Part shown: positions 20,712 through 26,865 of the stretch, piece by piece | Numbering within the stretch: position 1 is the first letter of the stretch | Layout: the number at the start of each line of letters is the position of its first letter | DNA from: Patescibacteria group bacterium | GTDB lineage: Bacteria; Patescibacteriota; Patescibacteriia; UBA2591; UBA6264 | Direction: 5' to 3' | Length of the DNA stretch: 32,000 bases | Assembly (NCBI GenBank): GCA_028713575.1 | Contig: JAQTOB010000001.1 | Span: 30,001-62,000, forward strand | Position numbers and translations under genes: made by a program | Notes under the pieces: generated by a model | What the model was told of the DNA's origin: nothing | The model's database searches: none | Seen by the model: only the letters and a program-made list of their open reading frames with translations

Positions 20712-20784
20712 ATAATTTTTGATTAACAAATAATATGTTATTTTATCATCTTATCATCTTCCTGAGTTTTTGTCAAAATAAAAA

Positions 20785-20856
20785 TAGCCCCGAGGAGAAT
20801 CGAACTCCTGTTACCAGGATGAAAACCTGGTGTCCTAACCACTAGACGACGGGGCC
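20785..20856 (-). tRNA. tRNA-Glu (UUC), intact
   Basis: The minus-strand sequence is ggccccgtcgtctagtggttaggacaccaggttttcatcctggtaacaggagttcgattctcctcggggcta. The anticodon arm is ccagg-TTTTCAT-cctgg and the T-arm contains GTTCGATTC. The G1:U72 end pair is slightly atypical. No CCA is encoded. Confidence 0.9.
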
Positions 20857-20862
20857 TTAATA

Positions 20863-21117
20863 TTATTTCAAATTGAATCCTAACTTATTAAGCAAATTTT
20901 TTCTTTCTTGATAATATTTTTTTAACCTTATTTCCCTTTTCCTTGCTTCTGATTTACTATCATACTCCTCCCTATACATCATAATAAACGGTCTTCTGTT
21001 TTTATTGGATTTTGTTTTGCCGGCGTTATGCTCTTTTAATCTTTTTCCAATGTCATCAGTCATACCAATATAATAACCTGAATCCTTTAAACTTTTTAGG
21101 ATATATAAATAATACAT
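20863..21117 (-). CDS. Small GIY-YIG (URI-domain) nuclease family protein (84 aa)
   Basis: 'MYYLYILKSLKDSGYYIGMTDDIGKRLKEHNAG...RPF...YREEY.SKSEARKREIRLKK' matches the GIY-YIG pattern (YxYIL...YIG...R...H...E). Start at ATG 21117. The 30 codons upstream in the track ORF merely read through tRNA-derived and GC-insert sequence. Confidence 0.8.
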   Translation of the reverse strand: MYYLYILKSLKDSGYYIGMTDDIGKRLKEHNAGKTKSNKNRRPFIMMYREEYDSKSEARKREIRLKKYYQERKNLLNKLGFNLK

Positions 21118-21221
21118 ACTCCTGTTACCAGGATGCCCGCCAGGGGCAGCCTGTCCGCCTACTGGCGGAGGTCCGCCTTTGGCGGAAAAACCTGGTGTCC
21201 TAACCACTAGACGACGGGGCC
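21118..21221 (-). pseudogene. Truncated tRNA-Glu(UUC) copy (nt 1-53) interrupted in the anticodon loop by a 51-nt insert
   Basis: 21187-21221 and 21118-21135 are identical to tRNA-Glu positions 1-35 and 36-53 of the intact copy. The T-arm and 3' acceptor strand are absent. Homology stops exactly at the ATG of the GIY-YIG ORF. Confidence 0.8.
21136..21186 (-). repeat. 51-nt GC-rich triple-hairpin insert between anticodon positions 35 and 36
   Basis: The minus-strand sequence is tCCGCCaaaGGCGGaCCTCCGCCagtaGGCGGAcAGGctGCCCctggcGGG(C). It forms three consecutive GC hairpins. It shares 'cgcctttggcg'/'gaggtcc' with 5640-5658 and 'gcctgtccg' with valS 28889-28897. Confidence 0.6.
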
Positions 21222-21271
21222 AAAAATAAGAATCATTCTAACAGTTAAATATTCTAACATTTTAACAGAAT

Positions 21272-21299
21272 TTGTCAAAGTAAAAAAATCTGTTAAAAT
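21272..21299 (+). promoter_or_regulatory. Putative promoter for tsaD
   Basis: TTGTCA (21272-21277), 16-nt spacer, TAAAAT (21294-21299), about 10 nt before the ATG region. Confidence 0.3.
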
Positions 21300-21309
21300 A
21301 AGCATTGCT

Positions 21310-22416
21310 ATGAATAACAAACAAAAATTTATTATCTTGGGTATTGAGACTTCATGCGACGAAACATCAGCCGCCCTTTTGGAATATAAGAATAATCGTT
21401 TCAAAATAATTTCCAATTTGGTTTCCTCACAGATTCCCATCCACCGAAGATACGGTGGAATCATTCCGGAAATCGCCGCCCGCGCCCATCTTAAAAATAT
21501 GCCCTTAATAATCAAAAAAATTAGCCGAGAAATCAACCTAAAAAATATTGATTTAATTGCCGTTACTCGCGGTCCAGGACTAATTACCTCTTTATTAGTT
21601 GGCGTGGAAACAGCTAAAACTTTGTCTTATCTTTTTGAGAAACCTCTAATTGGCATCAATCATTTAGAGGGGCACCTTGCCGCTAATTGGCTTCCGCCAA
21701 TTAGCGGAAATCCCAAATCCGAAGTCCTAAGCCCGAAACATATATTTCCTGCGGTGAGTTTGATTGTTTCCGGCGGACATACTGAACTCGGCTTAATAAA
21801 AAAAATGGGGAAGTATGAAAGAATTGGCCAAACCAGAGATGACGCGGCCGGCGAATGTTTTGACAAAGTCGCTAAATTGCTCAATCTCGGCTATCCAGGA
21901 GGCCCAGCCATTGCCGAGTATGCCCGTCAATGGAAATCTCAAATTTCAAATACCAAATTCCATATCTCCCTGCCACGACCGATGATAAAATCCAATGATT
22001 TTGATTTCAGTTTTTCCGGTCTCAAAACCGCTGTTCTTTATCTAGTTAAAAAAAATAAGAATAAAATAAAAAATAAAGACTTTATTAAAAATGTCTGTGC
22101 TGAAACGCAACAAGCAATCATTGACGTTTTAATTTATAAAACCATTAAGGCGGTAAAAAAACATCAGGCCAAAAGCATCTTTCTGTCCGGCGGAGTAGCG
22201 GCGAACCGCGAATTAAGGGAACAACTGCGGGACAGCGTGGAAAAACTGTCCCCGCAACGGAATTTTTTGGTTCCCCCGAACAATCTTTGTACTGATAACG
22301 CCGCCATGATTGCCGCCGCCGGAGTTATAAGATACGGCATGCTTTCGCTGAAACAAAAAAAGGGACTGAAGAACGGGTGGAAAGACGTAAAAATCGATCC
22401 AAACCTAAGCCTGTAG
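21310..22416 (+). CDS. tsaD: tRNA N6-adenosine threonylcarbamoyltransferase
   Basis: 'ILGIETSCDETSAAL', 'HLEGHL' and 'VSGGHTEL' are Kae1/TsaD metal- and ATP-binding motifs. 'GGVAANRELR' is also present. Confidence 0.9.
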   Translation: MNNKQKFIILGIETSCDETSAALLEYKNNRFKIISNLVSSQIPIHRRYGGIIPEIAARAHLKNMPLIIKKISREINLKNIDLIAVTRGPGLITSLLVGVETAKTLSYLFEKPLIGINHLEGHLAANWLPPISGNPKSEVLSPKHIFPAVSLIVSGGHTELGLIKKMGKYERIGQTRDDAAGECFDKVAKLLNLGYPGGPAIAEYARQWKSQISNTKFHISLPRPMIKSNDFDFSFSGLKTAVLYLVKKNKNKIKNKDFIKNVCAETQQAIIDVLIYKTIKAVKKHQAKSIFLSGGVAANRELREQLRDSVEKLSPQRNFLVPPNNLCTDNAAMIAAAGVIRYGMLSLKQKKGLKNGWKDVKIDPNLSL

Positions 22417-24822: not shown

Positions 24823-25425
24823 TTAAATAAATCTTTCGTTCTTAATAAATTTCGGCTTTGGGGGATTTTTGGATTCCTCTTTAACAAATTCTATATAATC
24901 CTGACGAAGTCCTTCTATCTCTCTTTCTCCGCTATATTCCAAAAAACGATTTCTATCAATTAAATCATCATTGTATTCCTTTTGAAAATAAACCGAAAAA
25001 CTGCTCCAAAGATAATCTTCTAATTTTTTACAAAGCCCCGCCCGTAAAGCATTCAGATCAATATAGGCGCTAACCGCCCAAAAATAAGATTCTGTATTTA
25101 TTAGAGAGGCATAAAATCTATCCTGAAATAAATGGCCCTTTCTTTTATATCTTCTATTAAAATATCCTGCATAATAACTATTAATGTAATGCATTATCTT
25201 GGAAACGACAACTTCGCCGACTTCTACGTATAAATGAAAATGGTTTGGAAGTAAATTATAGGAATAAAGATAAAAACCAAACATTTTTTTTGCCCTTTTC
25301 AAAATCGTCAAAAATTTCTTATAATCCTGTGGTGCTCGGAAAATACATCGTTGATTAACACCACGACAAACTATGTGATATAAAGCACCATTAGTAATAA
25401 TTTTTTCCCTTGTTTTTCGGGGCAT
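24823..25425 (-). CDS. IS200-like / REP-associated tyrosine transposase (RAYT)-like HUH protein
   Basis: HUH motif 'LLPNHFHLYVEV', 'GHLFQDRFYASLI', the Tyr region 'YIDLNALRAGL' and 'DYLWSSF'. This is the Y1_Tnp-family pattern. Confidence 0.8.
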   Translation of the reverse strand: MPRKTREKIITNGALYHIVCRGVNQRCIFRAPQDYKKFLTILKRAKKMFGFYLYSYNLLPNHFHLYVEVGEVVVSKIMHYINSYYAGYFNRRYKRKGHLFQDRFYASLINTESYFWAVSAYIDLNALRAGLCKKLEDYLWSSFSVYFQKEYNDDLIDRNRFLEYSGEREIEGLRQDYIEFVKEESKNPPKPKFIKNERFI

Positions 25426-25435
25426 TTTATTAAAT

Positions 25436-25532
25436 TAGTCGATATTCGACTACTTTTTAAAAATTGTCTTACAACCCGCTTCTAGTAATGATTTTAGAAT
25501 GGTATTTTTAGGGGACAGTCCCCTTTTTATAA
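25436..25532 (+). repeat. 97-nt hairpin-containing repeat, copy 1
   Basis: Contains the palindromes gtcga-tat-tcgac and aggggac-a-gtcccct. It is 95/97 identical to 26769-26865. Confidence 0.85.
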
Positions 25533-26768: not shown

Positions 26769-26865
26769 TAGTCGATATTCGACTATTTTTTAAAAATTGT
26801 CTTACAACCCGCTTCTAGTAATGATTTTAGGATGGTATTTTTAGGGGACAGTCCCCTTTTTATAA
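26769..26865 (+). repeat. 97-nt hairpin-containing repeat, copy 2 (direct orientation)
   Basis: Two mismatches relative to 25436-25532. Confidence 0.85.

Follow-up and report, generated by a model that had tools for sequence, protein, structure and literature searches.

A 365-nt cassette containing the gene for an 84-residue GIY-YIG nuclease interrupts a tRNA-Glu(UUC) gene in the 32,000-nt stretch of Patescibacteria DNA analysed here (GenBank assembly GCA_028713575.1, contig JAQTOB010000001.1, positions 30,001 to 62,000; hereafter the window). We lean, with modest confidence, towards the explanation that a selfish, homing-like cassette invaded this tRNA gene, the only one for tRNA-Glu(UUC) seen at the locus, and we infer the activity of its nuclease, its target and the role of the hairpins that accompany it. 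When the locus is aligned with uninterrupted alleles, a cassette-borne copy of tRNA nt 1–35 abuts the resident nt 36–72 and rebuilds an intact tRNA, while the original 5' half remains upstream, just behind the resident promoter, as a pseudo-tRNA that the hairpins interrupt.

Organization of the tRNA-Glu locus

Read on the minus strand, the locus runs from tRNA-Glu nt 1–35 through a 51-nt insert, tRNA nt 36–53, the 84-residue GIY-YIG open reading frame (ORF) and 6 nt to a complete tRNA-Glu(UUC). This order and all coordinates agree with an earlier description of the stretch made from its letters alone (hereafter the sequence-only reading). The features are as follows, with those of the insert indicated individually.

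21251..21278, minus strand: putative sigma-70-like promoter, TTGACA-16-TAGAAT with TG ahead of the second hexamer (consensus scan, 11/12 matches)
21187..21221, minus strand: truncated copy (psi-tRNA-Glu), tRNA nt 1–35, 100% identical to 20822–20856
21136..21186, minus strand: GC-rich hairpin insert, 51 nt, between tRNA nt 35 and 36
21186–21172, minus strand: hairpin 1, TCCGCC-AAA-GGCGGA
21169–21154, minus strand: hairpin 2, TCCGCC-AGTA-GGCGGA
21149–21137, minus strand: hairpin 3, CTGCC-CCT-GGCGG, with one G.T pair
21118..21135, minus strand: truncated copy (psi-tRNA-Glu), tRNA nt 36–53, 100% identical to 20804–20821
20863..21117, minus strand: GIY-YIG nuclease gene, 84 aa, with its ATG at 21117 abutting the tRNA fragment (Pfam PF01541)
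20857..20862, minus strand: spacer TATTAA, 6 nt, from the stop codon to the intact tRNA
20785..20856, minus strand: intact tRNA-Glu(UUC), 72 nt (ARAGORN; Rfam tRNA, 65.4 bits)
20822..21186, minus strand: the cassette as one 365-nt block, seen as the gap in the alignment with the empty alleles L170 and L166 (hairpins 51 nt, tRNA nt 36–53 18 nt, ORF 255 nt, spacer TATTAA 6 nt, tRNA nt 1–35 35 nt)

As the sequence-only reading had it, the 53 duplicated tRNA nucleotides are identical between the two copies (35 + 18 nt at 100%; blastn-short E within the window of 1.8e-15 for the 35-nt repeat and 2.6e-5 for the 18-nt repeat). Both exact repeats are in register with the tRNA, which excludes their chance occurrence in 32 kb. 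The insert has a G+C content of ~73% (hand count), compared to an average of 30–41% across the window, and with T as its first base and G as its last, it can be placed nowhere but between nt 35 and 36. An AGGAG inside the 18-nt fragment (21118–21135) lies 1 nt ahead of the ATG, and the window holds a single GIY-YIG gene and a single hairpin cluster of this type.

The consensus scan found no promoter comparable to 21251–21278 ahead of the ORF or of the intact tRNA, and the ORF is presumably transcribed from the tRNA promoter. The earlier suggestion that the truncated copy itself is processed by RNase P/Z fails, because that copy has no T-arm and acceptor 3' strands, and it gave no match to any tRNA model used even at E ≤ 1. 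Co-transcription with release by RNase P at the downstream intact tRNA is plausible from the arrangement of the locus.

Empty and filled alleles

Relatives were reached via the divergently transcribed tsaD gene, the closest ones not being among the matches listed from the metagenome scan. The closest relative, L170 (TsaD 78% identical), has one uninterrupted tRNA-Glu and no nuclease gene, and its promoter leader and downstream sequence align with the window at the nucleotide level. L166/L167 (TsaD 67%) are also empty and have the same gene order as the window (tsaD, tRNA-Glu, grx, HD, Sua5, RbfA, ClpP), while L168/L169 (TsaD 64%) are filled and encode a nuclease 74% identical to that of the window. 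Filled alleles are thus found in the window, L001 and L168/L169, and empty alleles in L170 and L166/L167, which is the presence/absence pattern that characterizes a free-standing homing gene.

When the window and the two nearest syntenic empty alleles were aligned together, one contiguous 365-nt gap at tRNA nt 35/36 set the window apart, and the proposal made from the letters alone, that a GIY-YIG cassette entered tRNA-Glu and regenerated an intact tRNA, is thereby upheld. Alternative placements need two events, a 314-nt and a separate 51-nt insertion, so that a single cassette is the most economical reading. On that reading, one cassette would have entered the anticodon loop with the hairpins at its left end and the spare 5' half at its right end; 21187–21221 would be the resident 5' half of the invaded gene, and the intact tRNA would consist of cassette-borne nt 1–35 (20856–20822) and resident nt 36–72. 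The window promoter is the counterpart of the resident tRNA-Glu promoter of the empty alleles, and its distance to 21187–21221 equals the tRNA-to-promoter distance in those alleles. The sequence of the rebuilt tRNA is also that found in the empty alleles, without exception in L166 and with one T-loop base differing in L170. The break point had previously been placed at the start of the T-stem; the junction is instead at nt 35/36, with the end of the upstream copy varying from about nt 41 to 53 among relatives while the hairpin site is constant.

A second indel is present at the tRNA-Glu locus. An ORF of 92–98 aa without a Pfam match lies between tRNA-Glu and the glutaredoxin gene in L170 (86–364), L168 (1421–1699) and L162 (1807–2103), and is missing from the window (20730–20785).

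A catalytic-domain-only nuclease

A profile search, one of the checks that the sequence-only reading had called for, assigned the 84-aa ORF to Pfam PF01541 over residues 1–70 (E = 1e-15, 58.2 bits, cut-off 22.6). No change was seen across 17 relatives at the catalytic residues Y5, G18, R26, H30, N31 and E62, and hardly any at Y2 and Y16. The ratio of nonsynonymous to synonymous differences per site (pN/pS) against six relatives was 0.23–0.30, with synonymous sites close to saturation, indicating that the ORF is intact and under purifying selection.

Searching the Protein Data Bank (PDB) with a profile of the 17 relatives retrieved the UPF0213 proteins BH0048 (1zg2, E = 8.5e-14) and EF2693 (1ywl, E = 2e-13), followed by Slx1 (3e-4 to 2e-3), while I-TevI reached E = 0.11. 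All 84 residues form the catalytic fold in the AlphaFold2 model (pLDDT 92.8), for which 1zg2 was again the top Foldseek match. The model superposed on Slx1 nuclease domains with TM-scores of 0.65–0.68 and root-mean-square deviations of 2.0–2.9 Å, compared to a TM-score of 0.44 for I-TevI (Foldseek E = 0.38). There is no Pfam domain besides GIY-YIG in the protein, and none of the kind that serves DNA recognition in I-TevI and SegB, and the NCBIfam model of group I intron endonucleases scored 16 bits against a cut-off of 56. By profile and predicted fold, the nuclease is therefore of the catalytic-domain-only UPF0213/Slx1 type and not of the I-TevI/SegB type. It is not an Slx1 proper, as the protein stops after the domain and has no zinc finger, but it may act in an Slx1-like manner. 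The earlier label of a homing-type nuclease is thus right about the GIY-YIG domain and wrong about a classical homing class, the match to I-TevI being marginal.

Representative clusters of this large family number 7,311 at E ≤ 1e-3. A search of IMG/VR yielded no relatives, and 50,697 GenBank phage records contained 19 weak matches with <45% identity. A phage origin was rejected on these grounds, and the analogy drawn earlier with free-standing nuclease genes of T5-like phages is a loose one. We also rejected a defence system, for which PADLOC gave only partial matches to PDC-S14, a candidate system (23–31 residues, E ~2e-4 to 2.5e-3).

A conserved double hairpin

The sequence-only reading had considered the 51-nt insert too short for a group I intron and had left its nature open. 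The insert is indeed no intron; comparison across loci identifies it as a conserved, covarying double or triple hairpin that is the hallmark of the whole cassette family. The element overall comprises two or three stems of 5–6 bp with loops of 3–4 nt, and the window insert has a folding energy of −36.4 kcal/mol (z = −3.69) and no match in Rfam at E ≤ 1.

At the same position, the tRNA-Glu copies of relatives carry two abutting hairpins with 6-bp stems, TCCGCC-AAA-GGCGGA then CCCGCC-YCT-GGCGGG. Stems vary by lineage in a compensatory manner, both in hairpin 1 (CCGCC, CCACC, CCCCC, CCCGC, CACCC, CGCCC) and in hairpin 2 (CCGCC, CACGC, CACCC, CAGCC). Covariation was assessed on 18 tRNA-Glu inserts picked by their flanks and G+C alone. 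The two stems were 97% and 100% paired, with changes on both sides at 8/12 pairs, and the covariation score was 0.367 compared to 0.112 in shuffles (0/500 reached 0.367) and ~0.02 with partners slid. The outer anticodon-stem pairs around these inserts have decayed.

The 51-nt form occurs independently in an unrelated metagenome contig, L168, where 49/51 positions match (96% identity), and in both inserts a third hairpin is nested between the standard two. The ORFs of the window and L168 share 77% nucleotide identity, with a proportion of synonymous differences (pS) of 0.63, which indicates that the insert is far more constrained than neutral sequence or was recently homogenised. Extra hairpins are also present in L103 and L051.

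An identical 20-nt perfect palindrome, CCTGCCTGCCGGCAGGCAGG, was found at L005, L050, L065, L077, L081, L105, L124, L133 and L135, in pseudo-tRNAs for Arg, Asn, Leu and Glu beside nucleases of different clades, and L148 (Ser) has a one-base variant. This distribution suggests that the hairpin module can move or converge independently of the ORF.

Recurrence across bacteria

Protein-guided scans provided 80 genome loci and 80 metagenome loci among the matches listed, and 161 loci were analysed. All counts in this paragraph are among the matches listed. The 161 loci contained at least 185 nuclease ORFs, and 108 of the 149 ORFs with enough flanking sequence (72%) had a same-strand tRNA within 150 nt; tRNAs were on the ORF strand in 171/176 cases. 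Downstream tRNAs were for Glu (32), Ser (13), Gln (10), Pro (9), Arg (9) and others, and upstream tRNAs chiefly for Cys and Pro. A fragment of the same tRNA preceded 65 of the 92 ORFs that are followed by a tRNA (71%; shuffled controls, 0), beginning at tRNA nt 1–3 in 50 of these 65. Perfect GC hairpins were 17-fold denser in the 80 nt ahead of the ATG than elsewhere (11.3 vs. 0.66 per kb), and they end 10–40 nt ahead of the ATG in most loci. Where sense-strand hairpins had a single mismatch, this was G.T in 17 cases and A.C in 8.

Hairpins break the tRNA fragments within or next to the D, anticodon or T loop, at positions that are specific to the isotype.

Glu: hairpin at 35/36 or 22/23, sometimes both
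Gln: hairpin after nt 18
Arg: hairpin after nt 21/22
Ser: hairpin after nt 21
Lys: hairpin in the T loop
Tyr: hairpin in the anticodon loop, at about nt 35/36

Hairpins take the place of the D arm, the T arm or both at the tRNA-Pro loci of Bacteroidales. Ignavibacteria tRNA-Cys loci have a hairpin in place of nt 37–55 and show mirrored polarity, with the intact tRNA first. Tandem arrays of a hairpin-bearing tRNA copy plus ORF are present in L002, L003, L007, L054 and L058; arrays end in one intact tRNA or, in Bacteroidota, begin with it. The second copy in L003 is a hairpin-bearing fragment with no ORF after it, and truncated ORF remnants occur among related loci. Overall, the design was seen at Glu, Gln, Arg, Ser, Pro, Cys, Lys, Tyr and other tRNA genes, covering at least a dozen isotypes, and protein clade, tRNA isotype and hairpin type cluster together. 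The taxon labels, given as recorded and in some cases possibly wrong for metagenome-assembled genomes (MAGs), include Patescibacteria, Bacteroidota, Ignavibacteriota, Chlorobiota, Planctomycetota, Elusimicrobiota and others.

Second assembly and annotation

The architecture is reproduced in NCBI contig JAQTSZ010000006.1 (L001; Patescibacteria MAG), which encodes the 84-aa protein residue for residue and, leaving the insert aside, matches the window without a difference over ~500 nt. The insert of this contig measures 30 nt instead of 51 nt, and a 100-N gap (L001 2202–2301) lies exactly at the hairpins, with duplicated promoter and tRNA-fragment flanks, indicating that insert length, or hairpin number, is polymorphic or hard to assemble. 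Dozens of unrelated MAGs and metagenome contigs share the design. The agreement of a second assembly and many independent loci shows that the locus is not an assembly artefact of the window contig, and the mis-assembly that the sequence-only reading had allowed for is not borne out, with the caveat that insert length is assembly-sensitive.

Database entries of the nuclease (P0001, P0009, P0013 and many more) are often 20–35 residues overlong at the N terminus, giving 100–126 aa. In these entries the ORF was started at an upstream GTG, such that the tRNA fragment and hairpins were translated, e.g. 'MVRTPGFSAKGGPPPVGG...' in P0001. This over-extension by gene callers conceals the pseudo-tRNA and the hairpin element.

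Proposed mechanism and alternative explanations

In the break-and-copy model that we favour, the nuclease would break the tRNA gene in or beside a loop, at the position later held by the hairpins. Its Slx1-like catalytic domain probably recognises folded or branched DNA of a highly transcribed gene rather than a long sequence, a possible substrate being a non-template strand that folds, for example into a cloverleaf, while a tRNA gene is under heavy transcription. Structure-dependent cutting would be favoured by the combination of this type of domain with sites that share no motif and all fall within or next to cloverleaf loops, although this is speculation. The break would then be repaired by copying the cassette-bearing allele, the two tRNA-derived flanks serving as homology arms, such that pairing takes place with the intact tRNA at the right end and, at the left end, with the tRNA fragment that precedes the hairpins. 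The hairpins would fill the break site and mark the junction and, more speculatively, act as a plug that makes the interrupted copy uncuttable. The regenerated tRNA could be cut again and repaired from the pseudo-copy, which would add a unit and in time produce tandem arrays, and the ORF mRNA would be separated from the tRNA by RNase P. Such a model would explain the match between the upstream fragment and the local tRNA, the hairpins at the end of homology, the single intact copy per array and the existence of arrays. Extended to the whole family, it would make the mini GIY-YIG nucleases of the UPF0213/YhbQ type, together with their covarying GC double hairpins, widespread and unrecognised selfish elements of bacteria that invade tRNA loops by targeting structure, plug them with hairpins and rebuild the tRNA from a carried half, a generalization that we advance tentatively and consider possible but doubtful.

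Several observations weigh against the break-and-copy model. An 84-aa catalytic domain has no obvious way to pick one loop of one tRNA gene, and we found no clear common sequence motif at the insertion sites, many of which lie 2–4 nt after GG, inconsistently. The regenerated tRNA is identical to the empty-allele tRNA over nt 1–53 and so has no sequence immunity; a nuclease aimed at sequence would cut its own host copy. A clade of 12 ORFs (83–86 aa) mostly has neither a neighbouring tRNA nor GC hairpins (L029, L030, L041, L049, L071, L074, L122, L136, L139, L140, L154) and may represent a stable, non-mobile form of the gene. Moreover, partial 3' copies of tRNA-Glu with the same anticodon-loop insert occur downstream of the intact tRNA, which a simple cassette model does not predict:

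L168 1780–1915, minus strand: partial 3' tRNA-Glu copy with anticodon-loop insert
L012 1822–1900: partial 3' tRNA-Glu copy with anticodon-loop insert
L015 1850–1905: partial 3' tRNA-Glu copy with anticodon-loop insert
L162 2170–2260: partial 3' tRNA-Glu copy with anticodon-loop insert, decayed, without any nuclease gene

In L168, the T loop of the downstream copy holds a second double hairpin, and the acceptor 3' strand is repeated in one arm of that hairpin (CTCGGGGCG). Finally, the excess of G.T over A.C mismatches is suggestive only and slightly favours a sense strand that folds, be it RNA or displaced DNA, over a double-stranded recognition site, while nested hairpins and the differing hairpin number in near-identical assemblies would suit hairpins that are mobile in themselves.

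Some of these points bear on two explanations that are partly compatible with the break-and-copy model. In one, which we judge unlikely while taking it seriously, the hairpins act as RNA, and the pseudo-tRNA plus hairpins form a structured 5' untranslated region of a nuclease mRNA made from the tRNA promoter. This region could make the mRNA more stable, prevent the orphan tRNA half from mispairing with the downstream pre-tRNA or control translation. The mRNA would be freed when RNase P cuts at the intact tRNA, and the cassette may still be mobile, with hairpins unrelated to DNA cleavage. A role in RNA is consistent with hairpins that stop shortly ahead of the ATG, with the sole convincing promoter lying upstream of the pseudo-tRNA, with the G.T excess, with a G.U pair conserved in the third hairpin of the window and L168, and with an alternative pairing in the window, TCCTG/CAGGA, that would sequester the AGGAG beside the ATG. 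However, it gives no reason for fixed tRNA-loop positions or the replacement of D and T arms, nor does it account for hairpin fragments without a following ORF (in L003 the second copy; in L012, L015 and L168 those lying downstream of the intact tRNA), and the loops are mainly of 3 nt, which in RNA are less favourable than tetraloops. Less likely again, in our estimate, is that the hairpin modules are themselves tiny mobile elements akin to REP sequences or to the GC clusters and double-hairpin elements of fungal mitochondria, inserting into the loops of stem-loop-forming DNA and mobilised by the nuclease as RAYT mobilises REPs, with the tRNA duplications as by-products of breaks. The nested additions (the third hairpin in the window and L168, extra ones in L103 and L051), the unequal hairpin number in two otherwise identical assemblies, the sharing of CCTGCCTGCCGGCAGGCAGG across isotypes and nuclease clades and the mobility of GC-rich hairpin elements in AT-rich mitochondrial genomes (PMC4478555) all point in that direction. 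Yet the hairpins occupy one site in the 32-kb window, so that there is no dispersed repeat there, they are concentrated beside the nuclease gene across the loci listed, and a hydrolytic nuclease alone has no known insertion chemistry.

The ORF could also be an ordinary host gene, co-transcribed with the tRNA and coding for, say, a nuclease of tRNA-linked repair or processing. This would fit the widespread occurrence of UPF0213/YhbQ as single-copy genes in many bacteria, the one clade with no nearby tRNA or hairpin and the purifying selection on the ORF, the truncated copy then being a decaying relic of a local tandem duplication and the insert random GC-rich filler. We regard this as very unlikely given the presence/absence polymorphism at a syntenic site among close relatives, the recurrence of the architecture at a dozen or more isotypes and the tandem arrays with truncated ORF remnants; furthermore, the truncated copy is 100% identical to the live tRNA and the insert conserved and covarying, neither of which decay predicts. 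Scarcely credible are the readings that the locus was assembled wrongly, or that it encodes a split or spliced tRNA with the insert as its intron. The scaffold gap and duplicated flanks at the hairpins in the NCBI contig could be taken to indicate the former and the location of the insert in the anticodon loop, a site of tRNA introns, the latter, but two assemblies and many unrelated loci agree. Bulge-helix-bulge tRNA introns are canonically at 37/38 and a group I core takes ~200 nt or more, while the insert is at 35/36, is 51 nt long and has no Rfam match at the threshold given above. Both intron types were therefore rejected, and as the interrupted copy ends before nt 54–72, splicing could yield no tRNA.

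Comparison with known systems

The genomic setting resembles that of SegB of phages T4 and T6, a free-standing GIY-YIG homing endonuclease whose gene lies among tRNA genes, is enriched beside tRNAs of many isotypes and forms tandem arrays, cleavage and subsequent recombination amplifying tRNA plus segB; its site holds a conserved tRNA T-loop motif, and recognition includes 11 bp of the tRNA T stem-loop (PMC2330249, PMC13096335). The cassette family shares the tRNA enrichment and the tandem repeats, and the puzzle of how a carrier genome avoids self-cutting arises for SegB as well. Unlike the chromosomal 84-aa catalytic domain of UPF0213/Slx1 type found here, SegB comes from phages, belongs to the I-TevI lineage and recognises a 27-bp site, and neither hairpin-interrupted tRNA fragments nor a regenerated tRNA have been described at SegB loci.

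To our knowledge, bacterial UPF0213 proteins have no established function and no known link to tRNA genes, hairpins or mobility. The UPF0213/YhbQ/YazA/Slx1 proteins (PDB 1zg2, 1ywl; 4xlg, 6seh, 7cq2), which are the best sequence and fold match to the nuclease, are represented in a grouping of Slx1, YhbQ and YazA as one family (PMC7017083), and a phylogenomic survey of GIY-YIG proteins contains no link of UPF0213 to tRNA genes, hairpins or mobility (PMC1564403). Slx1 is structure-specific for branched DNA, which fits a protein with no sequence-reading domain encoded beside conserved hairpins; it also has a C-terminal zinc finger and needs Slx4, and neither is present here.

In Allomyces mitochondria, a GIY-YIG ORF was reportedly found by Paquin, Laforest and Lang (1994) to have inserted into atp6, bringing a replacement for part of the gene. 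As in the cassette, an essential gene takes in a nuclease ORF, one copy is kept intact by a partial duplicate that the element carries, and the displaced part becomes a pseudogene. The two differ in that the Allomyces element concerns the 3' part of a protein gene in an organelle and is not known to have a hairpin plug, while the cassette replaces the 5' part in a tRNA gene on a bacterial chromosome. In collaborative homing, said to have been described by Zeng, Bonocora and Shub (2009), the free-standing F-CphI is encoded beside an intron-interrupted psbA in cyanophages. There, as proposed for the cassette, a free-standing nuclease is paired with a separate insertion that shields the cleavage site and both move together; the protector is a self-splicing intron that leaves the gene functional, unlike the unspliceable hairpins here, where function comes from a second, intact tRNA.

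Integrase islands and prophages span kilobases, encode a tyrosine integrase and duplicate the tRNA 3' end. They share with the cassette a tRNA target that is kept as a gene by a carried copy of the displaced part, but the cassette is 365 nt, has no integrase and duplicates the 5' part. We rejected an integrase-type island, as the block contains no recombinase, just the 84-aa ORF, and the duplicated part is nt 1–53, on the 5' side.

Double-hairpin elements (DHEs) of Allomyces mitochondria were reportedly described by Paquin et al. in 2000, and the GC clusters of yeast mitochondria are likewise short GC-rich hairpin elements (PMC4478555). The insert resembles both in size (~26–80 nt), in having one or two stem-loops in an AT-rich genome, in a number that varies between relatives and in nesting. 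GC clusters and DHEs are dispersed in tens to hundreds of copies, while the hairpins here are confined to the cassette at defined tRNA-derived positions. Compared with dispersed repeats of the GC cluster, DHE or REP class, the insert has their short stem-loops but, at one site in the window, not their many copies.

Free-standing GIY-YIG homing genes in the vicinity of tRNAs (SegB), endonuclease insertions supplying a substitute gene part and GC-rich hairpin elements (PMC4478555) were thus already known. Apparently new is the combination of a catalytic-only UPF0213 nuclease, a covarying double hairpin, a tRNA rebuilt from a carried 5' half and a wide chromosomal spread. This combined architecture was not described in the full-text literature searched, a search outside which most subscription journals lie, nor in the GIY-YIG survey (PMC1564403).

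These findings tie a large uncharacterised family to a concrete behaviour, tRNA gene invasion with regeneration of the target, and add a conserved structured cis element, a double hairpin at tRNA loop positions, that is absent from Rfam. At ~365 bp and 84 aa, the cassette is a minimal system both for site selectivity without a DNA-binding domain and for the coexistence of a selfish nuclease with an essential, uncamouflaged target. If the family-wide generalization is true, it would give a first biological role to a family that structural genomics left as 'unknown function' and reveal a new route by which a mobile element can target conserved genes without a DNA-reading domain. Pseudo-tRNAs and arrays also confound tRNA counts and assemblies in genomes of Patescibacteria, Bacteroidota, Ignavibacteriota and others.

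Other features of the window

The tsaD gene (21310–22416) contains two adjacent 28-nt imperfect palindromes at 21643–21710, one of which has 15-nt arms that are 93% complementary. An AT-rich motif, AAAAATCAAAAATCAAAATG, and its variants are dispersed over at least five sites in the window (8236, 14900, 15711, 27199, 29082). An ORF of 200 aa at 24823–25425 on the minus strand encodes an IS200-like Y1 transposase (Pfam Y1_Tnp, E = 6e-16) and adjoins a 97-nt direct repeat (25436–25532 and 26769–26865, 98% identity, 1333 nt apart). The repeat flanks a 320-aa ORF without a Pfam match and holds the palindromes TAGTCGATATTCGACTA and AGGGGACAGTCCCCT; together, transposase and repeat may be a RAYT/REP-like pair.

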